NCBI GenBank assembly: GCA_903927965.1
Contig: CAIYPA010000299.1
Span: 2,975-66,974, forward strand
DNA: 64,000 nucleotides
Reading direction: 5' to 3'
Origin: an uncultured Bacteroidia bacterium
GTDB lineage: Bacteria > Bacteroidota > Bacteroidia > Bacteroidales > Prolixibacteraceae
Shown: positions 25,525-40,252 of the stretch, piece after piece
Layout of the letters: every line of letters begins with the position of its first letter
Numbering within the stretch: position 1 is the stretch's first letter
Made by a program: the position numbers and the translations under genes
Notes under the pieces: model-generated
What the model was told of the DNA's origin: nothing
What the model saw: the letters and a program-made list of their open reading frames with translations, nothing else
Databases searched by the model: none

Positions 25525-25755
25525 ATGAGGCTGCAATATATTTCAGACAGTAAAGGGCAAACAACTGGCGTATTTATACCAATTAAGGAATGGAACGAGC
25601 TGAAAAGCAAATTCAAAGGCATTGAAATCGATGAAATTGACATACCATACTGGCATAAAGAAACAGTAAGAAAACGCTTGGCTGAATATGAGAATAATCC
25701 GAACGATGTTTTAGATTTTGATATTGCGATGATGGATATTGAAAAAGAATTGTAA
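25525..25755 (+). CDS. Putative addiction-module antitoxin component (partner of ParE/RelE toxin)
   Basis: 76 aa. IPYWHKETVRKRLAEYENNPNDVLDFD is typical of the small addiction-module-component family. Its stop overlaps the toxin ATG (taATG). Confidence 0.75.
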   Translation: MRLQYISDSKGQTTGVFIPIKEWNELKSKFKGIEIDEIDIPYWHKETVRKRLAEYENNPNDVLDFDIAMMDIEKEL

Positions 25756-26051
25756 TGTATAAGTCAATTATCCTTCCTCCTGCCAAAGAAGATATCCGAG
25801 ACGCTGCTTTATGGTACGATGAAAAACAGAAAGGACTCGGGAAAAGGTTTATAAATCAGGTTCGTGAAAAAGTGTATTTTATAAAACAAAATCCCCAAAC
25901 TGGAAGCGTACGCTATGACAATGTGAGAACGATGGTTCTGAATGTTTTCCCATTTATGATGCACTATACCATAAATGAAGATAGCGAAACCATAATTATT
26001 TCTGCAGTGTTGCACACAAGCCGCAACCCGGAAATATGGTCGGAGAGATGA
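25755..26051 (+). CDS. RelE/ParE-family type II toxin
   Basis: 98 aa. The A..DI..A..WY......GLG.RF pattern and C-terminal HTSRNP are typical of ParE-like toxins. It is translationally coupled to the upstream antitoxin. Confidence 0.8.
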   Translation: MYKSIILPPAKEDIRDAALWYDEKQKGLGKRFINQVREKVYFIKQNPQTGSVRYDNVRTMVLNVFPFMMHYTINEDSETIIISAVLHTSRNPEIWSER

Positions 26052-26095: not shown

Positions 26096-26392
26096 TGATT
26101 TTTGAATACTTGTTTTAATTTGATCCTGTTTTGGAAACGTACCCTAATTACCATGACGAAAACCCCCTCGCCGTTTCCGGCAAAGGGGGCGAAAAAAACA
26201 AACACACCTAAACTAAAACAATAACCACTATCTATTTATTGAACAAGCTTTGTGATGCTCCAAAATCATTTCTTTCATTTCCATTCAATAGTTTAATATT
26301 GAATATTTTAGCATTATAGTTAATTCGCCTAAAAAGGATTAAGAATATAAAACTGAAAATTGGTGCATGGAAGCTGAGATTATAAAATTTCA
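26096..26392. repeat. Island boundary repeat, copy D (full unit ~300 bp)
   Basis: See copy B. It contains the hairpin ccccctcgccgtttccggcaaaggggg, which on the minus strand is followed by ttttcg (terminator-like). It lies downstream of the minus-strand Clp_N-like gene. Confidence 0.8.
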
Positions 26393-26394
26393 TA

Positions 26395-26883
26395 TTAATT
26401 GATTCTGTAGCGCGAAAACAGGATATCCGATTTGAATTGGTTCATGTCAATATTGAAGGCCGAAAACAGTTTTTTTGAACAGGATGAATTCCATCCAATC
26501 ATCGAATAGAACAAATGCCTTATTTTTAATTCCTGGTTTGCATAGATCGCCGCATTCTCGAATATGCTTTTACATTCTGCGCTTCTATGGATGACCTTAT
26601 CTTCGGGAATTCCGTTTCCCATGGGCAGTAAATCCCGCAAGGCCCTTCTGAATTTGACAATATTTATCCCAAAAGTATTTAACCGGTTATAGAAGTCGTC
26701 TTTTTCTTCGACGAAATTCCTTTGTTGCTGTTCCGAAAGGTTCATTTTGGCCAGGTTCACCTTATCAAGTGAAAGTATCCCCAACATTATATGGTCAACC
26801 TCAATAAAGGGCAATTTTTTATTGGCTGCTTCGTAACAGCTAATTTGCCAGGCAAGTTGCACTGCTGTTGAATAATTGTTCAT
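26395..26883 (-). CDS. Stand-alone Clp N-terminal (Clp_R repeat)-like domain protein
   Basis: 162 aa. Two helical repeats resemble the ClpA/ClpB N-domain: AVQLAWQISCYEAANKKLPFIEVDHIMLGILS and ECKSIFENAAIYANQELKIRHLFYSMI. No AAA module is present. Confidence 0.5.
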   Translation of the reverse strand: MNNYSTAVQLAWQISCYEAANKKLPFIEVDHIMLGILSLDKVNLAKMNLSEQQQRNFVEEKDDFYNRLNTFGINIVKFRRALRDLLPMGNGIPEDKVIHRSAECKSIFENAAIYANQELKIRHLFYSMIGWNSSCSKKLFSAFNIDMNQFKSDILFSRYRIN

Positions 26884-27033
26884 TATGCTTTTATTATCAT
26901 TAAACTAATATTGAAATATTTAACCATAAACCTGTTTCGTTCGCTACCCGCTTCATTATGGATTCCGCCACCAAGTTTCAAAAGTCGTTGAAGGCTAACT
27001 AATTGTATTATAAGAACATACCCCCTCATGTCT

Positions 27034-27221
27034 TGTCATTGCGAGGTTTGCTACATAATACATTGTTAATCTGCATATTACCATGCAAACCGTGGCAATC
27101 CCAACCTAAGAAGCACTGTGCCAGAAACATTGTTCTGGAAGGTGCTTCAAACATGGGATTGCCACACTCGCATTTAAATTCTGCAAACCATTAAAAATCA
27201 ATACGCTCGTTCGCAATGACA
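27034..27221. repeat. MITE/REP-like structured element, copy 1
   Basis: Perfect 10-bp terminal inverted repeat, tgtcattgcg (27034-27043) and cgcaatgaca (27212-27221). These enclose a 74-nt nested hairpin at 27092-27165: gtggcaatccca/tgggattgccac, gaagcac/gtgcttc and ccagaa/ttctgg. Confidence 0.75.
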
Positions 27222-27339
27222 ATTCCGTGGGGGAAGATCGACCTAACGAAAACGGTGCTAACAATTTTGAGTGCGCCTCAAAGTTTTAAAAGTTGCATGA
27301 AGATACCAAACAACATAACGCACTTTCACTCTTAGGACC

Positions 27340-27470
27340 TGTCATTGCGCGGAGTGCGGAACTGGACTAAATTTGAAAGATTATCATTTGCACTCCAAAG
27401 CAATCCCATCTTAGTGGCACCGTGCCAAAAACAATGTTCTGGAAAGTTCTTCAAACATGGGATTGCCACA
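27340..27470. repeat. MITE/REP-like structured element, copy 2 (right end degenerate)
   Basis: Begins with the same tgtcattgcg. It contains agcaatccca...ccaaaaacaatgttctgg...tgggattgcc, collinear with copy 1. The flanking caaagttttaaaagttgcatgaag parallels caagtttcaaaagtcgttgaagg found before copy 1. Confidence 0.65.
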
Positions 27471-27561
27471 TTAACCATTTTGAAACTGCCAACAATTTTG
27501 TTTGCACCATCACCATCCCGGCACCATCAACAGTCTGAACCGAAGATCAGCGAAGCTAAAG

Positions 27562-27636
27562 CCTAACCCAACGGCAACGCCTTGGAAAAACATGAAACCC
27601 TAACCCAATGGCAACGCATTGTAAAACAATAGCGAC
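27562..27636. repeat. Imperfect tandem repeat, two copies of ~36 bp
   Basis: cctaacccaacggcaacgccttggaaaaaca... is followed by cctaacccaatggcaacgcattgtaaaacaa... Confidence 0.7.
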
Positions 27637-27735
27637 CCGCTACTATTTGCATCCAGAAAGGACAGCCTAATCCCCAAAAATATTTTCGCACCTACTGCGT
27701 TCGGTTTAAAAAAGCTAAGGGTAAGATTGTAAAAT

Positions 27736-28590
27736 CTAAAGAGCCTTGGCGCACCGGAAACCGTAGTAGTCGTTGTGGCCACCCGGTAAGTTGAGGCGGT
27801 TGGCAGTGCGGAAGGAGTAGTGGTCAAAGTCGTTCCACGAGCCGCCACGCAAAACACGCGAACTACCAGTTGAAGGACCTTGAGGATTGTTTTGCGGCGA
27901 ATTGGCATAATAATCAGCACCGTACCAATCGTTGCACCACTCCCATACATTGCCGGTCATATCGTACAAACCAAGTGAATTGGGTTGCTTTGTCCCAACA
28001 GGATGTGTTTTACTTTCGCTATTTGCACCGTACCATGCATATTTGCCAAGATTTTTTTCATCATTCGTACCGGACCATTTTGTTTTTTTTGTTGCCGGAC
28101 CAAAGGAGGCTGAATATTCCCACTCGGCTTCTGTTGGCAACCGGCAACCGACCCATTTTGCAAAGGCATTTGCATCTTCCCATGACACATTGATTACAGG
28201 ATGATTTCCCCTACCCCAACCCTCATCACCAGGTTTTTCCCTTCCGGTGGCAACACAAAAAAAATCGTATTGTTCAAATGTTACCTCGTATTTACCCATC
28301 TTAAAGGCACTCAAAGTTACCTGATGCATGGTTTCGTTTTTCCCCCTATTCTTTTCATTTTCTGGGCTACCCATTGAAAACGTTCCTGCCGGGATGTCTG
28401 CCCATTGAAATGTGGATAACAACTTGTCTTTAATGGACTGTTCTTTTGCTTTTGCCGATGCTTGTGCATTATTTGCCTCTGCCTTGGCTTTCTCTTCTGC
28501 CTTAACTTGCACCTTAAAGTACACTATATAAGCAACATTGGCAATAAGCCATAAGCACAAGTAAATCAATATTTTATTTTTCTTGCTCAT
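27736..28590 (-). CDS. Membrane-anchored FGE-sulfatase (SUMF1/EgtB/PvdO-like) domain protein
   Basis: 284 aa. N-terminal MSKKNK plus TM helix ILIYLCLWLIANVAYIVYF, then a Lys/Ala-rich coiled segment. The FGE-sulfatase domain motifs are PVINVSWEDA, GLYDMTGNVWEWCNDWY, RVLRGGSW and GFRC. Confidence 0.85.
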   Translation of the reverse strand: MSKKNKILIYLCLWLIANVAYIVYFKVQVKAEEKAKAEANNAQASAKAKEQSIKDKLLSTFQWADIPAGTFSMGSPENEKNRGKNETMHQVTLSAFKMGKYEVTFEQYDFFCVATGREKPGDEGWGRGNHPVINVSWEDANAFAKWVGCRLPTEAEWEYSASFGPATKKTKWSGTNDEKNLGKYAWYGANSESKTHPVGTKQPNSLGLYDMTGNVWEWCNDWYGADYYANSPQNNPQGPSTGSSRVLRGGSWNDFDHYSFRTANRLNLPGGHNDYYGFRCAKAL

Positions 28591-28629
28591 ATCTTGACAT
28601 TTAAAAATTAGTATTGCTTTCTTGAGGAA

Positions 28630-29571
28630 TTATTTGATTCCTATTTTTATAGCGACGGTTCGGTTTTTTTGCTGGTTTTGATGGTTATCGTTTATAAACG
28701 GGACTTTATCCACACTCAGGATGCCTGTCAAAATATCCTCGTTAAGTATCCTGCTGTTTTTAAGGATTATTTTACCAACCGCCATTGCACGTGCCTGCCT
28801 TAACGAATTGTCATCATTGAAATATTGGCCCTGCACAATTTGCACATCGTCCGAACACCCCAATATCGACATCAAGATTCGCCCGGCAAATGGATCAAGC
28901 ATTTTTGCCAAAAGGGCAATGGTCTCAATTCCGGTTTTTAACGGCTTGGCCCCTTTACGGAACAACCCTTCATTAAAGGTAACCAATAAGGTTCCATTAT
29001 TCTCGACAACGTTAATTCCAGCCACTTTGGCGAGGTTGGTTTTGACTTCATTCAGTATATTTGTGGAAGATCTGATTTCCCTAATTGCTGGTAGGGCATC
29101 AATCTTAGCGAGCAATGTAATTTGTTGTTCCTGAAGTAATTTCATGTTAGCCGACTGCCTGTTTATTCCTGCCACTACGGTATATAACAGTAAACCAATT
29201 GCGATTAACGACAAGGTTAGGACAACACCTTTGAACCTGAAGAAACGGTAAAAGACACGGCTTTTCTGAAGTTGGTCGATCCGGTGTAATGCGGAGATAA
29301 AGTGATTGTTGTTCGGATCAGCCTTCAGACACTTTCTCCAAAGGAACGAAGCCTCGTTGAACATTCCCTGTTGCGCATAGATTTTGGCCTGTAAATCCAT
29401 CAATGCCAGATTGTCACCAAACGATTTTGATAAACCGGAGATATAAGAACTTGCGGTGATATAATCGCCCTTAAAAGCAGCCTCAGAGGAGAGGTGCATA
29501 TAATAATCAAACAAAAGCTTGTTGATCTCCTCTGGGGTACTTTGAAAATCCATTTTAGATATATCGTTCAT
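28630..29571 (-). CDS. TPR - transmembrane - OmpA/MotB-like domain protein
   Basis: 313 aa. N-terminal TPR-like repeats (...AKIYAQQGMFNEASFLWRKCLKADPNN...) and one TM helix (VVLTLSLIAIGLLLYTVVAGI). The C-terminal OmpA-like pattern is FNEGLFRKGAKPL...ILGCSDD...NSLRQARAMAVGKIL...NRTVAIKI. Confidence 0.6.
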   Translation of the reverse strand: MNDISKMDFQSTPEEINKLLFDYYMHLSSEAAFKGDYITASSYISGLSKSFGDNLALMDLQAKIYAQQGMFNEASFLWRKCLKADPNNNHFISALHRIDQLQKSRVFYRFFRFKGVVLTLSLIAIGLLLYTVVAGINRQSANMKLLQEQQITLLAKIDALPAIREIRSSTNILNEVKTNLAKVAGINVVENNGTLLVTFNEGLFRKGAKPLKTGIETIALLAKMLDPFAGRILMSILGCSDDVQIVQGQYFNDDNSLRQARAMAVGKIILKNSRILNEDILTGILSVDKVPFINDNHQNQQKNRTVAIKIGIK

Positions 29572-29581
29572 ATACAGTTTA

Positions 29582-32077
29582 TTACCTTAATGTTGTTCCA
29601 CCAAAACGATTATTTTCGCCCTGCTCGCCCACCGGCAACAATTCGCCAAGCCCTCGGACCACTGTTTTTAAAGTGTCGATATCGTTGTTTTGGATCGCCC
29701 TTTCGCCGCTTGAAATCAATTCATCTGCCCTACTGCCATCTTTCATGTCGTGTTTTTTCTCTTTCAGGTTTGAAAGCCGTAAGATCCAATACTCTGGCAG
29801 CTTGTGCAACATCGTAAAATAAAGGATATCCGTCTCATCGATCCTTCGCCTGAGAAGGTCCGGATCTTTTGAGGCAATTGCCTTGTCGATTTCCCGCTCC
29901 AATCTGGTTAGGTTCTGCTTGTCGGCAGCATCGCCGTAACTATCGGCAATCCTCCGTGCATCCTCTTTGAATGCGATGGCCTCGTTGACCAGAGTAGGCC
30001 ATGCAAGCGAATCTTCAACCTGATCGAGCCACGACTTTAAGTCAAGGATCCTGTTGTTTGCCTTGATCCTCGCATCGGGATCCACTTTGGCTGCCTCGAT
30101 CAAAGTTTCGATCTCTTCCAAAACGTTCTCCTTGTCCATCTGGCCAAAAATCGAAAGAGCCTTTAAATCCTTTTCAGTTCGCGACTTTTCATATAGTTTG
30201 TCGTACAATTCTTTGTCCTTTGCAAAATCGGCTTTCAGATCCTTGACCTTTGCAGGTTCGATGACCAGATTGGCCTCCACCTCAAATTCTTCATCCAATA
30301 CGGGGATATAGGCTTTTGCCTTTACCAACCTCGATTTATCGACCATAATGGTGATTTCGATTTCGCTCCCTGCCGGCAATGTCCTTCGGATCTTGTTGCC
30401 AGGGATCGACAAGGACCCGATCAGCCGGTTGTGGTCTGCATGGCGGCTGTTTTCCCCTTCGACGATGGGGATATGGAGCAAATCCTCTTTTTGCCCTGCC
30501 CTTACTTCGTTCAGGTTCCGGTGGACGCTCATATTTTTGGCAGGCAACGAAACCCCTTTGCTCAACAAAAAGTCGGTTTCGTTATTGGCCATTGCGATAC
30601 CGATCGAATGGATCAACGGAAAATCGGCCGAAACAATCCCTGTTGTGTAGGACAAAGCTTCGGGGTTGGTTTTTTGCCTTATTCCGGTGTTGTTGAACAA
30701 TTCGATTAAAAATTCGTTCTTTTTCCCCTTTTCGGCCCAAAGCTGGCTAAAGAAGTCACCCTCTTCGGATATGTGGATTTTACCGCTGCGCCATTCCGGC
30801 CTTGTAGTTTTGTTTACAAATTCGATTGTAAAGCCCGAAAACTTCGTTAACCCATCAGAAATTATTTTGCCACCGATAAACGGTTCCGTATCGGAGCCAA
30901 CGGGTTGATAGTCCAATTCGAGCAGCAATTCGTTCTTTTCGGTCTTGGTATCTTTATTTACCGGTATGATCTGAGTCCCTGCAAAAATCGCTGCCCCTTT
31001 TGCCACAACCGTTATGGGGTAAATGCTGTATTCGAGCGGGATACCCAAACCTTCATTGGGGTCGGCAAGCATTTCGCGCAGATAGGGGATCATGGAGGTA
31101 CCCCCAACCATTATTATTTTCTCGATGTTGGCCGTTCCCAACCTTTTTTCCAGCAAAACCTGTTTACAGATATTGATCGACCGGACAATAAACGGCTTGG
31201 CCAATCTTTCAAAATCGGTTCTCGAAACCTCGCATATAAATTCAACCGCTTCACCGTTACTGTTTTTGTACAGGTTGTCGATCGTTATTTCGATTGAATC
31301 CTCCAACGAGAGCCTAATTTTTGCTTTCTCAGCTTCCGCTTTGAGTTTTGCAAACGCACCAAGGTATAACTTGTTATCGCGTGCAAAATCTCTCAATTTG
31401 AATTCCTTGATCACTGACGGTACCAATAACTTATTGACGATTTCCCAATCGAGGTTCTTCCCGCCAAGCCCATTGTCGCCGCCATGGTGGACAACTTCGA
31501 TCTGTCCGTCTTTGATCCGGATAATTGCAGCGTCAAAAGTGCCGCCGCCAAAATCGTAAACCAACCAGAATTTATTGTTGCTTTCGCTCTGGAAACCATA
31601 AGCCATGGCGGCAGCAATGGGCTCCTGCAAAAGAGGGTGGTTAATAAACCCCGCCATTTCTGCAGCCTTGTTTGTAGCCGAGCATTGGGGAAGTTCAAAA
31701 GCAGCCGGCACCGTAATGACCACAGACGTTATGTCCTCGCCCAATTGCCGCCTCACATCGTTCTTTAATGCTTTTAGCACCATTGCCGAAAGTTCTTCAG
31801 GGCTATAGCTTTTGCCGTTGCGGGCAAACGTGTATTTTGCATTGGATCCCATTTGCAATTTGAATTCGCTGAAAGCATTTTCAACATCGTCTTCGAGGTG
31901 CCCTTTTGCCCGAAGCCCCACATGTTCGGCTTCTTTTTTGTCGATCCAAACTGCCGAGGGGGTGAATTCGTTGCCATCGTTGTTTTTAAACACTTCTGCG
32001 TCCAATCCGTTCAAACGTGCTATTGTACTGTTGGTTGTACCGAGGTCGATCCCGAAATCAATTGTTACGTTTTTCAT
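29582..32077 (-). CDS. Atypical Hsp70-family ATPase (831 aa) with inserted and extended C-terminal regions
   Basis: Actin-fold ATPase motifs [22 protein letters not shown] and MVGGTSMIP. An SBD-beta-like block (HSIGIAM...LHIPIVEGEN...IGSLSI...EIEITIMVD) is present. About 110 aa lie between NBD and SBD, and a ~220-aa helical tail follows. It is distinct from dnaK at 17999. Confidence 0.85.
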   Translation of the reverse strand: MKNVTIDFGIDLGTTNSTIARLNGLDAEVFKNNDGNEFTPSAVWIDKKEAEHVGLRAKGHLEDDVENAFSEFKLQMGSNAKYTFARNGKSYSPEELSAMVLKALKNDVRRQLGEDITSVVITVPAAFELPQCSATNKAAEMAGFINHPLLQEPIAAAMAYGFQSESNNKFWLVYDFGGGTFDAAIIRIKDGQIEVVHHGGDNGLGGKNLDWEIVNKLLVPSVIKEFKLRDFARDNKLYLGAFAKLKAEAEKAKIRLSLEDSIEITIDNLYKNSNGEAVEFICEVSRTDFERLAKPFIVRSINICKQVLLEKRLGTANIEKIIMVGGTSMIPYLREMLADPNEGLGIPLEYSIYPITVVAKGAAIFAGTQIIPVNKDTKTEKNELLLELDYQPVGSDTEPFIGGKIISDGLTKFSGFTIEFVNKTTRPEWRSGKIHISEEGDFFSQLWAEKGKKNEFLIELFNNTGIRQKTNPEALSYTTGIVSADFPLIHSIGIAMANNETDFLLSKGVSLPAKNMSVHRNLNEVRAGQKEDLLHIPIVEGENSRHADHNRLIGSLSIPGNKIRRTLPAGSEIEITIMVDKSRLVKAKAYIPVLDEEFEVEANLVIEPAKVKDLKADFAKDKELYDKLYEKSRTEKDLKALSIFGQMDKENVLEEIETLIEAAKVDPDARIKANNRILDLKSWLDQVEDSLAWPTLVNEAIAFKEDARRIADSYGDAADKQNLTRLEREIDKAIASKDPDLLRRRIDETDILYFTMLHKLPEYWILRLSNLKEKKHDMKDGSRADELISSGERAIQNNDIDTLKTVVRGLGELLPVGEQGENNRFGGTTLR

Positions 32078-32108
32078 TTTTATGTGCTGATTATTAAGTT
32101 TATAAAAA

Positions 32109-32600
32109 TTATTCTGTTGGTGTCCCTACTATCACTTCACCCATGACGATCCGCTCACCTTTAAAGTAAATGGTGGGTTTGATCGTATCGATGATTGTCT
32201 CTTTTTTCAGACCCGGCGTAGGCTGGAATGTTAAAACCTTCAACGATAGGCCCGAATCAAAGTCGTTGTTGTCGTGATCCTGGATTTCGATCCCCTCCTT
32301 TTCCATTGCAAAGATCACAGATTCGAGGTGCCGGTACGTTCTTTTCATATCCTCGAATGGCTGGTTTGTGGCACGATCAACCATTCGTTTTTTCATCCGC
32401 CAAACGCCAACGGCAAGCTCGGCGACAAAATTGAGGTTGGTTTCATTTCTAACCTCCTTGACCGCAGGAGCAATTTGTTCTTTTGTTAATCCAGCTATTA
32501 GGTTTTCAAGGTTATTTAGGAGATCTTCGCTTAAAACTAATGGAACAATTCGGAACTCTTTTGGAAATTGTAACTGTTTAATACTTTCTATTTTTTTCAT
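32109..32600 (-). CDS. GrpE-like nucleotide exchange factor (short form)
   Basis: 163 aa. A helical N-half is followed by EKEGIEIQDHDNNDFDSGLSLKVL...IDTIKPTIYFKGERIVMGEVIV. This mirrors the GrpE pattern G.E.I...G..FDP..H.A.......V....GY...GR..R.A.V.V. Confidence 0.65.
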   Translation of the reverse strand: MKKIESIKQLQFPKEFRIVPLVLSEDLLNNLENLIAGLTKEQIAPAVKEVRNETNLNFVAELAVGVWRMKKRMVDRATNQPFEDMKRTYRHLESVIFAMEKEGIEIQDHDNNDFDSGLSLKVLTFQPTPGLKKETIIDTIKPTIYFKGERIVMGEVIVGTPTE

Positions 32601-32612
32601 ATATAGTTTATT

Positions 32613-34343
32613 TTAGCGTGCTTCGATTGGTTTTTCGCCATATTGCCATCCCTTTTCACGAAGTTCGACAATTTTTGGATATTGTAAATAGTAAACATAC
32701 TCCTTGGTTGTAAGTGTATGTATTTCAACCATATCCATTTTTATTTTTTGCGGTGAAAAAATATATCCGATTAACATTCCTAAAGCCGCAAAGTTTAGGA
32801 ATGTGAAATAGAGCCAGAAATCTAAATGTTCAAATCCGAGTTCAAGTATACCAAAAAAAGCGAAAAGGCTCAGACCCAAGCTAAAAATAAAGCCCCCAAA
32901 TATGTTAACTAAAATTTTTTCGTTTACCTGTGAATTTTTTTCCAAAATACTGTTTCTTTCTTTTTCAGTTTTGTTGTATAAATCATGCTCCTTTTTGCAA
33001 TTTGGGCATCTTGGAACTTCAATTGTATTGTGGCTCCACTTTACCGAATAACTTCCGTAAATCCCTGGCATATATGGATATTCGCGACCGCCAATGTCAA
33101 CAACTTTCCTCACGTTGCCGCACATTTTTATTTTAACTACATGGCTTTCATCGCTTTTATTTTTTTCACAAAAGAAACAAGTATTGTATAGCTTGTCGTA
33201 TTCTATATTGCTTATATAGATTTTCAGGTTGCCATTGACTTTTTGCTTCGCCGATTCGCCCTTCACAATGGAAATCAATTGCTCATAGATCGGTAACGCT
33301 TTTTCGTATTCCTCGCTTGCATTGGTGGCCGAATTGACAAGGTACATGGCTTCGAGCGACACTTCGTCGTGGGCAACTTCGCGCAACGAATTGTTGGCTG
33401 GCAACAGGATATCAAGTATTTCAAGCAAAGGTTTAGTCTGGTCGATCAATTTTTGGCTTGCCTCCAATTCGCCAACATGGTTCGGATATTTTTCATTAGT
33501 AAAAGACTTTGTGGTAATTTTAATCCTGTTCCTGATCGGTTCCACTGTTTTACGTAATGCCACATCACCTGCCTCTTTGCCAAATTCTGAATTTAGGATA
33601 AGTTCCAAATGCCTTTTGGCTGTTTGGGAATCCTGTTTTTCGGCAGCCTTGAGCGCAAGGTTCGCGTTGATCAACAACAATGCCATGGGCAATGATCCCC
33701 TGAATTCCTGAACAAAGCTTGTTGTCATGCGGGGGTCGTCCAATTGAATGATTCTTTCCGAAAACTTGTGCCAGAACCCTTCATGGTCAATAAGTAATTT
33801 CCACCTTTTAAAGGTTTTGACCCATTGTTGTTCAAGGTTGGCTGTTTCAGGCTTCTTCTGTGGATAGCCGGATAGTTCATCGTCAAGTATTTGCAAATGA
33901 GATAGAATTGCAAGGTTATGGCGCGATACATTTGATTCGGTCAACATATTTTCATATTCGATCCAGGTCTTTTCAGCCGCAGCAATATCCTTGTTTGATA
34001 AAAACCCAAGGGCTTTATCGGAATTTGCCATCTCAAAATCGTGAGGCCAAAACCAGAAAAACTCGTCAAGAATTCTTGTTTCGGGTTCGCGCAATCTGTG
34101 GAGTGCCAACCTGTGCTGGTCGGTATCAGGAGCTGGAACGATTGGAAATGGAGTTTCTGTGCTGATCGTTTTGTTGCCGTATTTCTCCATCAGTTGGTTT
34201 TTCTGCATCTGCGTGGTTATTTCCCGTGTCGTGGCGTTCACAGAAAGACCCGAGATACGAAAAGCGTTTCCCCTGTATATTTCAGGTACTGCTGCCTGAA
34301 GGAGGATCAAACATTCGTCATTTGTTGCTTTTTTTGGTTCCAT
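32613..34343 (-). CDS. J-like (no HPD) helical protein with CxxC...CxxC zinc ribbon and C-terminal two-helix membrane anchor
   Basis: 576 aa. The N-terminus NAFRISGLSVNATTREITTQMQKNQLM...LREPETRILDEFFWFW resembles J-domain helices II-III, but no HPD tripeptide occurs anywhere. A ribbon CFFC(55 aa)CPNC is present. Two hydrophobic helices are ILVNIFGGFIFSLGLSLFAFFGIL and FWLYFTFLNFAALGMLIGYIF. Confidence 0.5.
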   Translation of the reverse strand: MEPKKATNDECLILLQAAVPEIYRGNAFRISGLSVNATTREITTQMQKNQLMEKYGNKTISTETPFPIVPAPDTDQHRLALHRLREPETRILDEFFWFWPHDFEMANSDKALGFLSNKDIAAAEKTWIEYENMLTESNVSRHNLAILSHLQILDDELSGYPQKKPETANLEQQWVKTFKRWKLLIDHEGFWHKFSERIIQLDDPRMTTSFVQEFRGSLPMALLLINANLALKAAEKQDSQTAKRHLELILNSEFGKEAGDVALRKTVEPIRNRIKITTKSFTNEKYPNHVGELEASQKLIDQTKPLLEILDILLPANNSLREVAHDEVSLEAMYLVNSATNASEEYEKALPIYEQLISIVKGESAKQKVNGNLKIYISNIEYDKLYNTCFFCEKNKSDESHVVKIKMCGNVRKVVDIGGREYPYMPGIYGSYSVKWSHNTIEVPRCPNCKKEHDLYNKTEKERNSILEKNSQVNEKILVNIFGGFIFSLGLSLFAFFGILELGFEHLDFWLYFTFLNFAALGMLIGYIFSPQKIKMDMVEIHTLTTKEYVYYLQYPKIVELREKGWQYGEKPIEAR

Positions 34344-34367
34344 TTTTTATTCAGATTATGATGTTGT

Positions 34368-35471
34368 TTATCTTGAAATTCCTTTTCTCCACAACTTGGC
34401 CAAATACTCATATTTCTCCTTGTAATCGGGGAAACGGAGAAAAGCCTGTTCGAGCAGATCGGCCGCATCGTTCAATTTGTTCGAATAAATGCTAAGGCTT
34501 AATGCCTCTTTCAGTAACTCGGTAGCTTTCGTTTCGTCAACCGGTGTGTGCACCCCCAAGGCTTCCTTTGTTGTTTCTGCTTGGTTTATAGCGATATCCG
34601 TGTGTTTGGCTGTTTTAGAGGGTTTCCATTTTTTCAGGTCCTTTAAGAATTCCATTGCGTTCAGGTACCTTGCCGATGGTTCAATGGCCAATGCCTTCAA
34701 AGTGATCTGGTCCAGAAATGGATTTACGTTTAAATTCAAACGACTTGGCGGGATAATCGGCACCAAAAAACTGGAATGGTCAAAGAACTCGTTTTCAACT
34801 ATATCGGCAAAAGGCAAACGGTCCGTCAGCATAAGATAGAGAATACAACCGATAGCCCAAACATCGCCTGCACATGAATCAAATTTGTAATCTTTGTAAA
34901 CTTCGGGCGATTTAAAGATTTTGGTCCCTTTGGCACTGGCAAGAAGGGTAAGCGGGTTGACATGTTTTGCCAGGCCAAAATCGGAAACCCTAACCCTAAT
35001 CCCTTCCGAATCGTACCCGATCAAAATATTCTGTGGCTTAATATCCCTGTGAATGATAGGTGGGTTTTCGCTGTGTGAAACAGCAAGTCCCTGGCAGATC
35101 TGTGTAATAACCTGAACGGTAGTCTCAATCGGAACAACCCGATTGTCGTACGATTGCCAGAACTTGTCGAGGCTGCCCCCTGCAACATATTCCATAGTAA
35201 AATAGCCGAAAATGCCCTTCTGGGTTGTCGAGACATTGGCATCGAATACCCTTACAATATTGGGATGCCCGATCTGGGACAGGAGTATGGCTTCGCCCAT
35301 GATCTTCTCGATTTCATCCATCGTCATCCCGAATGTTTTGAAAACCTTCATTGCTTGCCTGCCCAGAAACCTGTGTTTCACCCGGTAAACTTCGGCGAAA
35401 GCCCCTTCACCCAAAAAGCGCTCAACTTCGTAGGTATTGTTAATTCTTTGTCCTTCAGTTAGTATAGCCAT
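34368..35471 (-). CDS. Hanks-type Ser/Thr protein kinase, cytosolic, with helical (TPR-like) tail
   Basis: 367 aa. G-loop LGEGAFAEVY, AMKV lysine, catalytic loop HRDIKPQNIL, DFGLAK, and an APE-like SPE. No TM segment. Confidence 0.92.
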   Translation of the reverse strand: MAILTEGQRINNTYEVERFLGEGAFAEVYRVKHRFLGRQAMKVFKTFGMTMDEIEKIMGEAILLSQIGHPNIVRVFDANVSTTQKGIFGYFTMEYVAGGSLDKFWQSYDNRVVPIETTVQVITQICQGLAVSHSENPPIIHRDIKPQNILIGYDSEGIRVRVSDFGLAKHVNPLTLLASAKGTKIFKSPEVYKDYKFDSCAGDVWAIGCILYLMLTDRLPFADIVENEFFDHSSFLVPIIPPSRLNLNVNPFLDQITLKALAIEPSARYLNAMEFLKDLKKWKPSKTAKHTDIAINQAETTKEALGVHTPVDETKATELLKEALSLSIYSNKLNDAADLLEQAFLRFPDYKEKYEYLAKLWRKGISR

Positions 35472-35483
35472 ATTGTCATTTTT

Positions 35484-36224
35484 TTAAGGATTGGTAATTA
35501 GCCGATATCCCATACCCCTTATGTTGACGAGGTATGATGGGTTTTTAAAATCGGGCTCTATTTTTTTCCTCAATGCCGCGATAATGTGATTGACATCGTT
35601 TGCGGTATGCTCATAGGCATCGTCCCAAAGAGCCGAAATCAGCTCATCGAAGGTACACATCACCGGAATATTCTCGTTTGATTTGTTTTTTTGATCCATA
35701 AACCTCAGTAGTTTGTGTTCCAATGGAGTTAACGAACCAACTTCGATTACTTTGTTATCTTTGTAAATCAGCAGTTTGGCCTGGACCCAATCATAACACA
35801 ATCCTGATTTGAAATTTTCGTGATTTTCGGTAGCCAGTGGGTCTTTGTAATGCAACTCCCAATATTTGGCAGGTTCTTCAACACCAATACTGGCAAGTAC
35901 CATGATGATATCGTCGTTTTGCAATTTCAATTCGCCTTTCACTTTCTGTACAGAATTTTGCCGTTTAACAAAAGTCCCGTTCTTACTTGCATTGTCGATT
36001 ATCCATGATGTACAATTCTTGACCTCAATCGAGCAGTGCATATACCGTGTGACCAACTGTTGGGGATCGGGCAAAAGGGAGATATCGTTTAGGTCCTCCA
36101 ATCGTCCAATGATGATCTTGTCTTTATCGACAACCCTCCTGGTTTCGACACCATCGATTGATCTGATTGTGATATAAGGCTTTACAATATTCACCTTTTT
36201 GACTTGTTTTATATTTTGCGTCAT
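35484..36224 (-). CDS. FHA domain - OmpR/PhoB-type winged-helix DNA-binding regulator
   Basis: 246 aa. FHA block IIIGRLEDLNDISL...VTRYMHCSIE...IIDNASKNGTFV. The C-terminal Trans_reg_C pattern is LTPLEHKLLRFM...LISALWDD...VNHIIAALRKKIE...IRGMGYRL. Confidence 0.8.
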   Translation of the reverse strand: MTQNIKQVKKVNIVKPYITIRSIDGVETRRVVDKDKIIIGRLEDLNDISLLPDPQQLVTRYMHCSIEVKNCTSWIIDNASKNGTFVKRQNSVQKVKGELKLQNDDIIMVLASIGVEEPAKYWELHYKDPLATENHENFKSGLCYDWVQAKLLIYKDNKVIEVGSLTPLEHKLLRFMDQKNKSNENIPVMCTFDELISALWDDAYEHTANDVNHIIAALRKKIEPDFKNPSYLVNIRGMGYRLITNP

Positions 36225-36287
36225 GCTCCTGAAATTTTATTTTAAATCTATGTCGGTAAAAATACGTCCCCGATCATGTCGAATCAA

Positions 36288-36318
36288 TGGAATTTTGGTT
36301 GAAAAAGAGTGGAATTTT
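36288..36318. promoter_or_regulatory. Direct repeat TGGAATTTT x2 spaced 22 bp apart, candidate operator upstream of the FHA-wHTH gene
   Basis: tggaatttt occurs at 36288-36296 and 36310-36318, within the 154-bp gap between the phosphatase stop and the FHA-wHTH start. A function as a wHTH site is inferred only. Confidence 0.3.
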
Positions 36319-36378
36319 AAGTATTGTAGGAAACCCACAATTTCACTTGATATTGTCAAATGCGGGAAACCTAAAATA

Positions 36379-37131
36379 TCAGGTATCATTTACAATTTCA
36401 GATTGCCAGTATTCCTTTGTGTCTAAATCCATTAGTGTAAGTTTGCCGGAAATGTGGACTCCTGTGTCGAGCATCCAGAGATTTGCAAAGTGTTTGGGTG
36501 CCGAATCGCCAATAAAAAGAGTAGGTGTGTGTCCGATGAAAATTTCCCGAAATTCTTCAAAAACCCGATCTATTTGGTGATACTCCAGAGCAGTCAACAC
36601 CAATGACCTGTCCCATAATAAGATGTCTTTATCTTCCTGCTGACGATAAAATGGAATCCTCGGGTTGTAACCACCATGGACAAACAATCGTGATTCCGGA
36701 TCAATAAAAAACAACTTTGCATTTTCAAAAAAACGGATATGCTTTTCCCATAAGTGGGGAGCCTTTTGATATTCTTCAAGGGTATGTTTTCCCCCTTGAG
36801 ATTTCCATTCTTTGGGAATCCGATTAGATTTTAAATATTGATAGCACCATTCATCGTGATTACCAAGGATATGGATGAAATTCTTAACTTCCATCAACTT
36901 TTCGATGACCTCAATTGGTTTTGGACCGCGGTCAACCAAATCACCTAGGCTAATCAGAAGGTCTTTTTCAAATATAAAACCAACACGCTTAAAGAGATCC
37001 ATCATCTCGTCAAAATGGCTGTGAATATCGCCTATTACAAATTTCCGTGGTTCAGACATTTCATGGGAATGTTGCAACGGTTCGGGGCCGTTGTACAAGG
37101 GCAGATCATGTAATGAATCGAATTGGTTCAT
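36379..37131 (-). CDS. PPP-family (calcineurin-like metallophosphoesterase) Ser/Thr phosphatase
   Basis: 250 aa. GDIHSH (GDxHG-type), GDLVDRGP (GDxVDRG) and GNHDEW (GNHE/D) motifs in canonical order. Confidence 0.85.
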   Translation of the reverse strand: MNQFDSLHDLPLYNGPEPLQHSHEMSEPRKFVIGDIHSHFDEMMDLFKRVGFIFEKDLLISLGDLVDRGPKPIEVIEKLMEVKNFIHILGNHDEWCYQYLKSNRIPKEWKSQGGKHTLEEYQKAPHLWEKHIRFFENAKLFFIDPESRLFVHGGYNPRIPFYRQQEDKDILLWDRSLVLTALEYHQIDRVFEEFREIFIGHTPTLFIGDSAPKHFANLWMLDTGVHISGKLTLMDLDTKEYWQSEIVNDT

Positions 37132-37341
37132 GCCTGGTACCAGTTATTTTTAAGCGGTTAAATGTAAAAAGTTTACAACAATAAAACAATAAGGTAAAGA
37201 TATTTTAGTCCTTTTTAGAAGGCAAAATAATCATTTGAAAACCTACCTAAATTTCGTAAAACTAACCTAATTGTTCTCCTATTTATCGATGTTCAATAAC
37301 TGGTAAGGATTTTCTTAATTTTGTACTTTAAATACATTAAG

Positions 37342-38289
37342 ATGACAAATACAGAATTTGAATGTAGGATATGCCATAACAGTACTGGCAACAAACCATT
37401 TACAGCCAGGGAACGGATGCTGGGGCTCAATGACGAATTTGAATATTTTGAGTGTTCAAATTGCATGTGCCTACAAATCAAAGAAATACCTACCGATATG
37501 GATCGTTATTATCCTACGGGATATTATTCGTACCAACAACCTGTATTTACCACAGAACTGACGGGGATAAGGCATTTCCTAAAAAAAAGCCTTGCAGGTT
37601 ATTACACTGGGAAATTTAACCTCACAGGTTCTATCTTGTCAAAAATTTATGGCAACCCGTTTACCTGGCTAAAACCCAATATTGTAAATTTTAAGTCCAA
37701 AATTCTGGATGTGGGTTGCGGTAAAGGAAGGTTGTTGTTGTCGATGAAAAGGAGCGGCTACCAGAATCTGACCGGTATCGATCCCTACAACAGTGAAGAT
37801 ATCCGATACGAAAATGGCGTAAATGTCTATAAGAAAGATGTCTTTGAAATGGAGGGTCAATATGACCTTGTGATGCTGCACCATTCGTTTGAACATATGG
37901 ATTCCCCTAAAACTGTTTTGGATAGATTAGGACAACTAATTAATTACCAGGGTTTTATAATTATTAGAATTCCCGTTGCCAATTGCTATGCATGGCGGAA
38001 ATACCAAACCCATTGGCTCCAGTTGGATGCACCGCGCCACTTCTTTTTGCACTCGATCAAAAGCATGACCCTCCTTGCCAAGGAATGTGGCCTCAACCTT
38101 CAACGTTTTGAATTTGAGTCAAGTGCGTTTCAATTTACGGGAAGCGAAAAATACTTGAGGGACTTGGGATTTACGCAGGATAATTCCATATTCACGCAGG
38201 AACAGTTAGAAAGCTTCGCAAAGGAAGCACAAAGACTGAACCAACTGAATGACGGCGATTCGGCCTGTTTCTATTTAAGAAAAGCTTGA
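37342..38289 (+). CDS. Class I SAM-dependent methyltransferase with N-terminal CxxC...CxxC zinc ribbon
   Basis: FECRICHN...FECSNC ribbon, SAM motif ILDVGCGKGRLL, and DLVMLHHSFEHM. I preferred the ATG at 37342 to the TTG at 37321. It is divergent from the phosphatase gene. Confidence 0.8.
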   Translation: MTNTEFECRICHNSTGNKPFTARERMLGLNDEFEYFECSNCMCLQIKEIPTDMDRYYPTGYYSYQQPVFTTELTGIRHFLKKSLAGYYTGKFNLTGSILSKIYGNPFTWLKPNIVNFKSKILDVGCGKGRLLLSMKRSGYQNLTGIDPYNSEDIRYENGVNVYKKDVFEMEGQYDLVMLHHSFEHMDSPKTVLDRLGQLINYQGFIIIRIPVANCYAWRKYQTHWLQLDAPRHFFLHSIKSMTLLAKECGLNLQRFEFESSAFQFTGSEKYLRDLGFTQDNSIFTQEQLESFAKEAQRLNQLNDGDSACFYLRKA

Positions 38290-38398
38290 TGGAATTTATT
38301 CGCTTTATTTTATGTATTTTCGTCATAAATTGCTTTGATAAATAATTTTGTCCGTAATATGACATTAGTTTTTCAGCAAATCATTTAATATTTTTGTA

Positions 38399-38584
38399 AT
38401 GAAAGGCGAGTACTTAAAAAGGAAATACAAGGAAATTGAGCGGGAGGAAAAAGACACCTTGGAAATTCCTGATTGGCAAAAAGAAATAGTTCTGCAAAGA
38501 CTTAAAGAGTACCATAGTAACCCTGAAAATGTTTTGGATTGGGTCGATGTTCAAAAAGAAATCGAAACAAAATATGGTTTTTAA
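38399..38584 (+). CDS. Putative addiction-module antitoxin component (paralogue of 25525..25755)
   Basis: 61 aa. IPDWQKEIVLQRLKEYHSNPENVLDW parallels IPYWHKETVRKRLAEYENNPNDVLDF. Confidence 0.7.
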   Translation: MKGEYLKRKYKEIEREEKDTLEIPDWQKEIVLQRLKEYHSNPENVLDWVDVQKEIETKYGF

Positions 38585-38723
38585 GATTGTAATAACACAT
38601 AAGGCTCAGATTGATATTAACGAGGGAATTGAATGGTATGACGAACAAGTTCCTGAACTTGGAAAACGCTTTTTTCAGACCATTCAAGCCAATTTTAAAA
38701 CGCTTTGTATAGACCCATTTTAG
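38574..38723 (+). pseudogene. Truncated RelE/ParE-family toxin (N-terminal ~49 codons only)
   Basis: MVFKIVITHKAQIDINEGIEWYDEQVPELGKRFFQTI... is collinear with the first half of the 98-aa toxin at 25755. It stops at 38721-38723, and the neighbouring flippase gene ends 39 bp later. Confidence 0.65.
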
Positions 38724-38761
38724 GTGGAAAAATCACGTGAGTCCTTTTACATTTATTGCAC

Positions 38762-40252
38762 CTATTTTTTCTGTTTCATCCCCAAAACCATCAACACGTC
38801 ATCCGCCTTCTGATTGATATCAGGTGATATTTTCAACAGGTAAACCGGGAGGCAAAACAAAACAGTCAGGATGGTGCTTCTGACAAAGATATCAAGGATA
38901 AAATTTGGCAATACAGGTAAAAGCATTGTGATCAGATAAGCACCTATACCAATGGCTGCCACAATGACGAAATTTAAGTTAAACGGCTGTAAACCATACT
39001 TATAATATAAAAATGAAAACCTCAACAGGTTAAGTATCGTCAGCGAAACGGCCCCTCCAAGGGCGGCTCCTGTTATCCCCAAGACCGGAATCAGCAAAAG
39101 GTTGGTAATCACCAGTAAAACAACAAGCACCAACAAAAAAACAGTCTGGACTTTATAATACTTTGACGAACCCAAAATTGAACTGTTGGCCCCTGTGCTC
39201 ATATCGATCAGGCTTCCCAATCCGATAAAAAAGATCACCCATTTTCCTGGAAGGTATTCGGGCCTCAGGATATGAAAAACATTGTCAATATTGGCCCATA
39301 GCCCTAAGAACATGATCAGTCCAATAATAAAGAGGGTAATGCAACTTTTCTCATAAATAGTCCTGATGTTATTCAAATCGTTGTTCTTCCAGGCATCAGC
39401 CGAAACAATGTTGGTGATTTTCAGGATTGCCCTCGAAGGAATGCTGACAATGATCCCGAAAAAGAAACAGACTGTATAAATCCCAGTAGCACTCAAACCC
39501 ATCATCTTATTGATCATCAGAGTATCCACTGTTTGGATGATCAGGACAGAAAACCCATTCAGGATACTGAACAAGGCCATTAATCCTACAGAATGGAGCA
39601 AAGGTTTTTTCAAAAAGGCAAAATCTGTTTTTAACGGGAATTGCTTCTCAGATATCAAAGTATATACAATAAAGAGGGTGGGAACCGACATCGAAGCGAT
39701 GTAGAAAAAGACGAACTGGTGAAAATCAATCAATTCATAATAAAAAAAACCTATTCCTATGATAATCAATATTCTTTGAAATACTTCACGAAGGAAAGTA
39801 CCATGTACGCTATTGAGGAGTGCGGTATAATATCCATCCAAAAGGATAAAAAAGATCTGGAAAAAAATCAGGACAAGGAGGTAATTCAAGTAATCGACCA
39901 GCAAGGCAGATTTCTCCAAACTAAATTCGATAAACCAATTCCTGAAGATCAAAAAAAGCAGCAGGGTGATCAGCGAACCGGCAAGGCCAGCCAACAACGT
40001 CATAGAAAGAAAACCATGATGGCCACTTTTAGGATCTTTAAAAAATGGGAACAGCCTGATTGCGACGCCGCTAAACCCCAAAGTTCCAAACTGTGCCACA
40101 AGTGTTGCATAAGCGACAATGATCTTGAGCAAACCAACCTGCTCGGTCGAGAAAATAAGCTGCAGTAAAATTCCCGTGGTCAAAAAACCAAGCACAACAC
40201 CGACATAAGTGCAAATTGTTCCCTTAACAGACTGATTGATAATAATTCCCAA
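38762..40252 (-). CDS. Oligosaccharide/polysaccharide flippase (MOP/Wzx-like) family membrane protein
   Basis: 496 aa with about 14 hydrophobic helices. Length and topology are typical of Wzx-type flippases. Confidence 0.65.
   Translation of the reverse strand: MGIIINQSVKGTICTYVGVVLGFLTTGILLQLIFSTEQVGLLKIIVAYATLVAQFGTLGFSGVAIRLFPFFKDPKSGHHGFLSMTLLAGLAGSLITLLLFLIFRNWFIEFSLEKSALLVDYLNYLLVLIFFQIFFILLDGYYTALLNSVHGTFLREVFQRILIIIGIGFFYYELIDFHQFVFFYIASMSVPTLFIVYTLISEKQFPLKTDFAFLKKPLLHSVGLMALFSILNGFSVLIIQTVDTLMINKMMGLSATGIYTVCFFFGIIVSIPSRAILKITNIVSADAWKNNDLNNIRTIYEKSCITLFIIGLIMFLGLWANIDNVFHILRPEYLPGKWVIFFIGLGSLIDMSTGANSSILGSSKYYKVQTVFLLVLVVLLVITNLLLIPVLGITGAALGGAVSLTILNLLRFSFLYYKYGLQPFNLNFVIVAAIGIGAYLITMLLPVLPNFILDIFVRSTILTVLFCLPVYLLKISPDINQKADDVLMVLGMKQKK

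Follow-up and report, generated by a model that had tools for sequence, protein, structure and literature searches.

The window analysed here, a 64,000-nucleotide (nt) stretch of contig CAIYPA010000299.1 from an uncultured Bacteroidia bacterium, carries on its minus strand a gene cluster built around an atypical Hsp70, and the locus is best explained as one copy of a conserved cassette that has spread horizontally. The core of the cassette consists of four genes, which encode a protein without domain annotation (termed protein X here), a GrpE-like protein, an Hsp70 of about 830 amino acids (aa) and a protein that combines TPR, transmembrane (TM) and OmpA-like parts (co-occurrence 86-92%). Judged from sequence, the cassette may specify an Hsp70 switch, tethered to the membrane and to peptidoglycan, by which Ser/Thr phospho-signalling is gated, and this is the reading we prefer, at slightly less than an even chance. 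Its parts differ in strength: a real, dedicated Hsp70 system is very probable, tethering to the membrane and to peptidoglycan is probable, and the chaperone-gated kinase switch is put forward tentatively.

A check of the open reading frames (ORFs) reproduced exactly what the initial annotation had reported on the eight co-directional minus-strand genes, namely their coordinates, their lengths and the small gaps between them (154, 12, 24, 12, 31, 10 and 39 nt in the order from the PPP phosphatase gene to the FGE-sulfatase gene), including the 154 nt that separate the upstream PPP gene from the rest. All eight genes had been named correctly, and one further gene, encoding a Clp_N protein at 26395-26883, lies beyond the region described there and had been missed. 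The features are as follows.

36379..37131, minus strand: PPP-family (lambda/PrpA/ApaH-like) metallophosphatase, 250 aa; Metallophos 5.5e-17; lineage-specific accessory
35484..36224, minus strand: FHA plus OmpR-type winged helix (FHA-wHTH), 246 aa; FHA 1.7e-7, Trans_reg_C 1.9e-12; lineage-specific accessory
34368..35471, minus strand: Hanks-type Ser/Thr kinase, soluble, 367 aa; Pkinase 3.2e-44
32613..34343, minus strand: protein X, 576 aa; without Pfam, NCBIfam or PADLOC match; AlphaFold2 model
32109..32600, minus strand: divergent GrpE-like protein, 163 aa; Pfam GrpE below cut-off, hhalign
29582..32077, minus strand: atypical Hsp70, 831 aa; HSP70 7.1e-79, residues 8-367 only
28630..29571, minus strand: TPR-TM-OmpA/MotB-like protein, 313 aa; weak TPR, NCBIfam OmpA/MotB, one TM helix
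27736..28590, minus strand: N-terminal anchor, low-complexity coiled segment and FGE-sulfatase domain, 284 aa; FGE-sulfatase 1.5e-58; lineage-specific insertion
26395..26883, minus strand: stand-alone double-repeat Clp_N protein, 162 aa; Pfam Clp_N 18.8 bits against a cut-off of 20.7
26163..26188, minus strand: intrinsic-terminator-like hairpin; 11-bp stem with 8 G-C pairs, then a T run

The domain calls made earlier for the PPP phosphatase, the FHA and winged-helix regulator, the kinase, the Hsp70 nucleotide-binding domain (NBD) and the FGE-sulfatase are borne out by these strong profile E-values. Looking up the nine window proteins as exact sequences gave no names. The hairpin is the first strong terminator-like one 3' of the cassette on the minus strand in a scan by consensus only, and a sigma-70 promoter scan gave as many matches as expected from shuffled sequence, Bacteroidota promoters being different from the sigma-70 consensus.

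Conservation of the cassette was surveyed from protein X by scanning one genome of each GTDB species with a pattern derived from a profile; a scan with the X sequence alone gave no match. The pattern scan recovered relatives of X from 190 species representatives, and 78 of these loci were fetched. They belong to at least 13 phyla: Bacteroidota, Planctomycetota, Acidobacteriota, Chloroflexota, Nitrospirota, Gemmatimonadota, Myxococcota, Verrucomicrobiota, Actinomycetota, Pseudomonadota, Desulfobacterota, Cloacimonadota and Zhuqueibacterota. Co-occurrence was counted in the six-frame ORFs of 81 loci (the 78 fetched and three from look-ups, L003 being a duplicate of L002), the queries being the window proteins and family profiles; a gene had to lie on the same strand as X and within 9 kb of it, and only loci whose flank was long enough entered the count. 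The Hsp70 accompanies X at 56 of 61 loci, the GrpE-like protein lies near X or the Hsp70 at 66 of 76, and the OmpA-like protein at 48 of 56; these three and X are the conserved core. The cassette-type kinase is found at 44 of 65 loci (68%) and the Clp_N protein at 19 of 52 (37%). PPP (2/58), FHA-wHTH (3/60) and FGE-sulfatase (1/52) occur in just 2-5% of loci, and they are therefore lineage-specific add-ons. Thus the core is syntenic across at least 13 phyla, whereas the eight genes do not form one conserved unit, as had been proposed.

The commonest gene order is kinase, X, GrpE-like, Hsp70, OmpA-like and an optional Clp_N. In actinomycete loci the same four genes are kept in a permuted order (GrpE-like, Hsp70, OmpA-like, X), and the window order, including PPP and FHA-wHTH, is found in Aureibaculum conchae (L001) and in a Bacteroidota metagenome-assembled genome (MAG; L004). 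In both of the latter the Clp_N gene follows straight after the OmpA-like gene, without an FGE gene between. It follows, first, that the FGE gene and the 852-nt spacer behind it were inserted in the window and, second, that the window cassette really ends with the Clp_N gene. The spacer (26884-27735, between the FGE and Clp_N genes) holds two direct repeat units of about 300 nt, each with an imperfect palindrome of about 80 nt (GGCAATCCCA...TGGGATTGCC). Folding of the palindrome at 27090-27172 reaches -42 kcal/mol, with z -6 to -8 whichever strand is taken, that of the palindrome at 27395-27476 is weaker, and just these two copies are present in the window. Rfam gave no match in the spacer; the repeats could be a REP- or MITE-like element (repetitive extragenic palindrome, miniature inverted-repeat transposable element) or a leftover of the FGE insertion.

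Against the window proteins, the median identity across other phyla is 55% for the kinase, the most conserved component, 46% for the Hsp70, 36.5% for the GrpE-like protein, 31% for X, 27% for Clp_N and 25% for the OmpA-like protein, which is the least conserved. The spread is patchy, with about 0.1% of species representatives spread over at least 13 phyla, and identity between phyla is high. Some loci carry duplications: tandem Hsp70 paralogues are found at L029, L031, L035 and L077, and two X genes at L006, L033, L048, L049, L071, L074 and L081, where the second X often has HEAT, Sel1 or cyclophilin modules and not the TM hairpin. Among cultured organisms the cassette is present in Chthoniobacter flavus Ellin428, Aureibaculum conchae, Actinomadura, Frankia and Parafrankia. 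A 2.1-kb contig labelled Candidatus Paceibacterota, a CPR bacterium (L011, JBBDIH010000265.1), bears a Clp_N gene and an X that is 59% identical to that of the window; owing to its close similarity to the Bacteroidota copies, it is maybe mis-binned.

The Hsp70 is well equipped for an ATPase cycle. Its NBD, the only part that the Pfam HSP70 profile covers, contains all nucleotide-binding and catalytic motifs (phosphate-1, phosphate-2 and adenosine motifs, catalytic Lys and Glu) when compared with the DnaK of the same window (FKLQMG, QEPIAA, DFGGGTFD, VGGTSMIP), and the interdomain linker ELLLELD aligns with DVLLLD of DnaK. A profile built from 28 C-terminal halves matches the structures of the DnaK substrate-binding beta domain (SBD-beta; 13iq, 1dkz) with E=8e-8. 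This match, aligned to DnaK ~398-520, begins at profile position 111, which means that about 110 residues are inserted between the linker and SBD-beta; behind SBD-beta a long helical region (lid) of more than 200 residues follows. According to these alignments the protein keeps all ATPase motifs, the allosteric linker and the substrate-binding beta domain. The insert (residues ~385-490) is beta-rich and kept across the family with the consensus IELEYKPVG...GFTIEFVN...WRSGKI...LWAEKG, and a PDB sequence search found no match for it. In the NBD, a deletion matches DnaK ~78-98; the same lobe-I deletion is present in HscC (PMC8215388).

The cassette Hsp70 is distinct from the housekeeping protein. 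The latter is encoded separately in the window, as the initial annotation had noted (17999-19921, 864 bits), whereas the cassette protein scores 260 bits against the NCBIfam DnaK models with cut-offs of 648 (NF001413) and 822 (TIGR02350), with only the NBD aligned. Its score is also far below the HscA equivalog cut-off, and HscA/HscB was rejected as the identity of the system. A protein search with the Hsp70 C-terminus filled up with generic candidates and yielded only fragments, which bear the names 'DnaK' or 'Hsp70 family protein'.

The GrpE-like protein is so called on several tests that agree on its C-terminal ~70 residues, none of them significant alone. The window protein scores 17.5 bits against a Pfam GrpE cut-off of 25.8, and 8 of 30 orthologues match that family at E<0.01 (best 8.5e-5). 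The top PDB profile match is GrpE 4ani (E=0.13), and hhalign to E. coli GrpE is in register (90-160 to 125-194) with E=0.0016. In addition, the Aureibaculum orthologue is named 'nucleotide exchange factor GrpE' by NCBI. The earlier GrpE-like call is therefore weak but consistent, and the protein is probably a nucleotide-exchange factor.

Protein X has no match in Pfam, NCBIfam or PADLOC, and yet it belongs to a sizeable family. More than 260 homologues were found in a word-indexed search, and HMMER against 1.84 billion representatives gave 1,618 cluster representatives (50% identity) at E<=1e-3, of which 725 reached E<=1e-30. Built on 87 sequences, the AlphaFold2 model (pLDDT, predicted local distance difference test, 91.2; pTM, predicted template-modelling score, 0.79) consists of short N-terminal helices (~12-95), an alpha-solenoid (~103-386), a beta zinc-ribbon (389-449) and a TM hairpin. 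In the alignment of the 87 sequences X is well conserved and not hypervariable, and the zinc-ribbon cysteines C389, C392, C446 and C449 are invariant; the hydropathy scan places the TM helices at 481-499 and 511-529, in line with the CxxC..CxxC ribbon and the two C-terminal TM helices described earlier. The cytoplasmic tail is also conserved (W566, G569, P572). A sequence-profile search of the PDB returned only noise, and whole-chain Foldseek of the model gave generic TPR/HEAT-like matches only (best E=0.03); LapB and P58IPK, both among these matches and both insignificant, were rejected as relatives.

Whether the N-terminus of X is J-like, as initially proposed, was considered at the levels of fold and of motif. 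The isolated N-terminal model (pLDDT 75.8) has predicted helices at 27-31, 39-54, 74-85 and 87-95, and J-domains make up about 20 of its top 50 PDB matches in Foldseek, all at E>=0.9, with probability up to 0.90 and TM-score by target up to 0.73. In hhalign, X is in register with the J-domain of E. coli DnaJ (E=0.0053, probability 6.8%), pairing FRIxGL with YEILGV and LRDPExR with LTDSQKR. Canonical J-domains need the HPD (His-Pro-Asp) motif to stimulate the ATPase. In X, however, EKYG and a 19-residue loop occupy the position of KYHPD, no conserved HPD is present in the 87 sequences, and none of the 87 matches Pfam DnaJ (PF00226), even at E<=1. The J-like call is thus suggested at the fold level only and fails at the level of HPD and Pfam DnaJ, and the claim of a complete canonical triad was overstated. 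In our reading of the model, the N-terminus of X may be a J-domain-derived fold that has lost HPD. Longer homologues keep this N-terminal module and add HEAT, Sel1, cyclophilin, receiver, TIR or extra zinc-ribbon modules. Such variable C-termini are typical of J-proteins, which are organised as a constant Hsp70-binding module joined to variable targeting modules.

A natural fusion ties the N-terminal module of X to the Hsp70. The 973-aa protein P0086, from the Bacteroidales MAG contig JACZJL010000176.1 (L082, 1-15000), begins with an Hsp70 NBD that is 74% identical to that of the window over residues 1-377, continues with X residues 10-264 (50% identical) and ends in a C-terminal TIR_2 domain. 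With the NBD and the X N-terminus joined in one natural protein, the fusion speaks directly for joint action of these two modules. The fusion gene lies in a TIR-rich island, which also encodes several TIR_2 proteins, a TIR-TPR protein, a PrsW protease, a radical SAM protein and a 1570-aa STAND protein of DUF4062-AAA_16-WD40 architecture.

The OmpA-like protein supplies the second putative anchor. In the window it has one TM helix (116-134), TPR scores under the Pfam cut-offs and a C-terminus that matches the NCBIfam models of TssL-long-form OmpA (3.7e-8) and MotB (1.1e-6), both also under their cut-offs; Pfam OmpA gave no match at E<=0.1, and for an N..L..RA-type signature the sequence offers GCSD...NDDNSLRQARAMAV. 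The distant Actinoallomurus orthologue (L041) reaches 36.6 bits with Pfam OmpA (cut-off 27.2) and has TPR. The predicted TPR-TM-OmpA architecture, with a cytoplasmic TPR part and a periplasmic peptidoglycan-binding domain, is confirmed in that orthologue; of the original call, the TM helix is reproduced in the window copy, and the TPR and OmpA profile scores of that copy are weak. The hydropathy scan also agrees that three proteins are membrane-anchored (X, OmpA-like and FGE).

The kinase is located differently. It has no hydrophobic or TM segment and no sensor domain, only a short helical C-terminal tail, and a cassette-specific orthologue lies directly upstream of X in the 44 loci that have it. 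A kinase without TM or sensor domain that is nevertheless the most conserved component is more likely a tightly co-evolving partner than a free-standing sensor. Its PADLOC matches to mad6 and PD-T4-6 (1e-57 to 1e-53) are generic and comparable to that of PknB (1e-55).

The remaining genes are optional. Twelve of 14 orthologues of the Clp_N protein match Pfam Clp_N (best 2.5e-8) and two repeats are visible in their alignment, so by profile the family belongs to the double-repeat Clp_N proteins, the window copy itself scoring 18.8 against 20.7 bits; at L010, L029 and L081 a full Clp-type AAA+ ATPase takes its position. The PPP protein scores 2.4e-18 and 2.5e-15 with NCBIfam models of PrpA/PrpB-type Ser/Thr phosphatases, under their cut-offs, and stands beside the cassette only in the Bacteroidota loci L001 and L004. 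The FHA-wHTH protein, which is a probable phospho-threonine-dependent transcription factor, does so only in L001, L004 and L020. The FGE-sulfatase protein has a TM helix (7-25) and an extracytoplasmic domain of C-type-lectin fold; at L020 an FGE gene is also found inside the cassette.

How could these proteins work together? In the preferred reading, X would be a J-protein-like adaptor that docks on the NBD of the Hsp70 and fixes the chaperone at the inner membrane, the GrpE-like protein would reset the nucleotide state, and the TPR-TM-OmpA protein would couple the complex to peptidoglycan. The ATP-driven Hsp70 cycle could then serve as a switch or threshold device, which holds or remodels a membrane complex and thereby gates the soluble kinase; the kinase would be the gated output or a tightly bound partner and not the sensor. 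In the Bacteroidota version present in the window, FHA-wHTH would read the output of the kinase and PPP would reset it. The Clp_N protein may pass clients to Clp-type unfoldases or compete for them. The trigger is probably an envelope or membrane-proteostasis perturbation, perhaps including phage attack.

Several points weigh against this reading. First, the kinase is missing from about one third of the loci, notably from the actinomycete variant, which means that kinase gating is not the universal output and that the universal function must sit in the four-gene core. Second, FHA-wHTH and PPP are too rare to be part of a general mechanism. Third, the J-like module of X has no HPD, the J-domain evidence is sub-significant when each test is taken singly (Foldseek E>=0.9; hhalign probability 6.8%), and the GrpE evidence is sub-threshold. 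Finally, the cassette analysis identified no client, effector or signal.

The surroundings of the cassette are varied. Between the housekeeping dnaK and the cassette, the window contains three consecutive genes for AAA_14-DUF4143 ATPases (20236-21483 on the plus strand, 21548-22756 and 23191-24513 on the minus strand) and a ParE-family toxin gene (25755-26051, plus strand), in agreement with the toxin-antitoxin modules and DUF4143 ATPases reported initially. Envelope and polysaccharide genes lie around the cassette (15204-16505 and 37321-42870), among them genes for a Wzy_C O-antigen ligase-like protein, a Polysacc_synt flippase, a YfhO-like membrane protein and a methyltransferase, the last of which is transcribed divergently from PPP; this neighbourhood is not conserved at other cassette loci. 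At L002 (Deltaproteobacteria MAG JACPWD010000037.1; 1-9500, 17200-22800) the four-gene core is flanked on the opposite strand by genes for two WD40 proteins, a Clp_N-AAA+ ATPase, a CHAT (caspase-like)-Clp_N fusion and a DO-GTPase2, which makes it a second setting with Clp_N domains and genes of conflict type next to the cassette.

The strongest competitor is a dedicated anti-phage or conflict system, in which Hsp70 and X would sense foreign or misfolded (phage) proteins at the membrane and free an effector that arrests growth or aborts the infection; this could be the kinase, the TM hairpin of X or a lineage-specific module such as TIR. Such a system would be an Hsp70-centred analogue of the MoxR-vWA 'ternary' conflict systems, which are thresholded by a chaperone, and we regard it as rather unlikely. 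On the one hand, several characteristics of the cassette fit this view: the patchy distribution that resembles horizontal gene transfer (HGT), with high identity across phyla in so few species; the duplication of X or Hsp70 at several loci; the constant N-terminal module of X with variable repeat or enzymatic C-termini; the Hsp70-NBD/X/TIR fusion in its TIR- and STAND-rich surroundings; the CHAT-Clp_N, DO-GTPase2 and WD40 genes that flank L002; and, in the window, the neighbouring ParE toxin and DUF4143 ATPases. The cassette also overlaps in domain vocabulary (TM-OmpA, ClpN, FGS, Sel1/HEAT, TIR) with the conflict systems described by Kaur et al. 2020 (PMC7159879), and a precedent for chaperone-mediated phage sensing has been reported (PMC12169576). 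On the other hand, the core has no recognisable toxic effector and X is not hypervariable, as mentioned above. PADLOC-DB 2.0 gave no system-specific match in the window, only generic kinase models and two marginal matches (PDC-M61B 3.7e-4, ZorB 6.5e-4), with none for X, GrpE-like, PPP, FHA-wHTH, FGE or Clp_N. Residence in a defence island, assumed earlier for the window, is not general: among 148 flanking ORFs of 57 loci no Pfam family appears more than three times, matches to defence models are sporadic and generic, and the neighbours of the Aureibaculum cassette are housekeeping genes. No X was found by tblastn on PLSDB plasmids or INPHARED phages. Because the flanking genes are heterogeneous, an immune role is possible but unproven. 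In a broader form, to which we give a similarly low probability, the cassette would represent an unrecognised immune or surveillance class in which the tethered Hsp70 cycle is itself the sensor or threshold for foreign or damaged envelope proteins and releases the kinase or lineage-specific effectors such as TIR. If true, it would be a prokaryotic counterpart of the eukaryotic stress and immune kinases gated by chaperones. It would also add a fourth type to the prokaryotic Hsp70 systems, distinct in mechanism and with a J-like partner that lacks HPD.

Less probable is a chaperone dedicated to biogenesis or quality control of a single membrane- or wall-associated client, modelled on HscA-HscB for IscU or on HscC-DjlB/DjlC at the E. 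coli membrane, with the kinase only regulating chaperone activity. Specialised Hsp70s with dedicated membrane-anchored J-partners are known (HscC-DjlB/C; PMC8215388), and the lobe-I deletion of the NBD is common to HscC and the cassette Hsp70. The downstream Clp_N protein or full Clp ATPase fits a hand-off to disaggregation or degradation, one X paralogue has a cyclophilin peptidyl-prolyl isomerase, and the window copy lies among polysaccharide and envelope genes. However, no conserved candidate client gene is present in or near the cassette, and the exceptional conservation of the kinase and the TIR fusion are hard to explain by this view. Moreover, the review literature describes HscA and HscC as devoid of the GrpE signature and presumably independent of an exchange factor (PMC8215388), whereas the cassette keeps one.

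The scheme of the initial annotation appears improbable. There, sensing of an envelope or infection signal is assigned to the kinase and phosphatase, its transcriptional read-out to FHA-wHTH, and the execution or buffering of the response to the Hsp70 machine. The scheme is consistent with the upstream position of PPP, FHA-wHTH and kinase in the window, and FHA-wHTH with a Hanks kinase is an established pairing (EmbR-PknH). However, more than 94% of loci do without PPP and FHA-wHTH, no TM, extracytoplasmic or ligand-binding domain is present in the kinase, and the Hsp70 core persists in the 32% of loci from which the kinase is absent. Since the kinase is soluble, without a sensor or TM domain and dispensable in one third of loci, the pair is unlikely to be the primary sensor, a role that suits the membrane components and the Hsp70 better. 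That unrelated genes came together by chance has hardly any probability left and nothing in its favour: it is refuted by dozens of genomes, from no fewer than 13 phyla, that keep the same gene order and have a cassette-specific orthologue for each gene of the core.

The comparison with known systems begins with DnaK-DnaJ-GrpE. As in that system, there is an Hsp70 with intact NBD, linker and SBD-beta, accompanied by a putatively GrpE-related partner and a partner whose fold may be J-domain-like. Unlike DnaK, the cassette Hsp70 has 831 aa with the ~110-aa insert and a long lid, and scores 260 bits against cut-offs of 648 and 822; unlike DnaJ and GrpE, X has neither HPD nor a Pfam DnaJ signal, and the GrpE-like protein, with 163 aa, is under the Pfam cut-off. 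Moreover, the genes for these parts stand in one cluster with those for membrane proteins and a kinase, apart from the housekeeping dnaK of the same window.

Signalling through an Hsp70 and its J-protein has precedents. In E. coli, DjlA and DnaK signal to Rcs and DnaK/DnaJ/GrpE control sigma-32; in eukaryotes BiP-ERdj4 control IRE1 and PERK. What the cassette may have in common with BiP-ERdj4 and sigma-32 control is the working principle only, in which an Hsp70, with a J-protein at a membrane, keeps a signalling protein (a kinase) inactive until clients titrate the chaperone; their signalling parts, in contrast, have no homology to the cassette. The Hanks kinase is a point of likeness to the TerY-P triad, Stk2, PD-T4-6 and Mad6 of MADS, and the window also has a phosphatase. 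The TerY-P triad, to which the locus had been likened, was nevertheless rejected: the window cassette has no vWA/TerY protein, and its phosphatase, found at just 2/58 loci, is of PPP/Metallophos and not of PP2C type. The FHA-wHTH protein resembles EmbR-type regulators, in which FHA and an OmpR/SARP-type DNA-binding domain occur beside a Hanks kinase, but its domain order differs, it has no BTAD, and it is an accessory of a few lineages only.

Three further groups of Hsp70-like proteins were set apart. At the Myxococcus StkA locus, a 540-aa Hsp70 is accompanied by SCP2-like and PhaE-like genes. In the Hsp70-like CnuD proteins of CoCoNuT the ATPase motifs are degenerate, and these proteins occur in fusion or linkage with McrBC. 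Finally, the DnaK-like parts of EACC1-protease fusions are about 50% identical to DnaK and lidless.

The HscC-DjlB/DjlC system is similar to the cassette in its specialised Hsp70, its TM-anchored co-chaperones at the inner membrane, the lobe-I deletion and its sporadic, HGT-like spread (PMC8215388). HscC is specialised and non-essential, and it is recruited to the inner membrane by these co-chaperones (PMC8215388). Unlike the cassette protein, it has 550-580 aa, works without an exchange factor and is partnered by true J-domains that contain HPD and are anchored by a C-terminal TM segment (PMC8215388); that system also has no peptidoglycan-anchored partner, kinase or Clp_N.

The systems of Kaur, Burroughs, Iyer and Aravind 2020 have in common with the cassette the combination of an NTPase chaperone, a co-chaperone and a 'third component' in which a constant region is joined to variable repeat or effector modules, and the shared domain vocabulary (PMC7159879). 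Their types include the MoxR-vWA ternary systems and GAP1-N2 DO-GTPase systems with HSP70, GrpE and DnaJ-FNIII, and the theme with Hsp70 belongs to actinobacteria and firmicutes, where the DnaJ fusions are canonical; that paper contains no description of the present cassette (PMC7159879). Assignment to the DO-GTPase/HSP70 theme was rejected, as no MoxR, vWA, DO-GTPase, GAP1 or FNIII was found in the nine window proteins or in L041, and the DO-GTPase2 gene near L002 belongs to a separate cluster on the opposite strand.

The claim that this is not a known system holds for PADLOC and for the literature searched, which lay mostly outside subscription journals and contained no description of the cassette. 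Protein X adds a sizeable family without domain annotation (about 1,600 clusters at 50% identity), and the cassette as a whole opens a tractable system for two questions: what drives an Hsp70 that has no canonical J-domain partner, and how Ser/Thr signalling or immunity is connected to a chaperone cycle. The types of prokaryotic Hsp70 recognised in review are DnaK, HscA and HscC only (PMC8215388), and the cassette machine matches none of these three. It would stand beside them as a further, widespread type, which is marked by its own exchange factor, an apparently J-derived adaptor without HPD, a cell-wall anchor and a co-evolving Hanks kinase.

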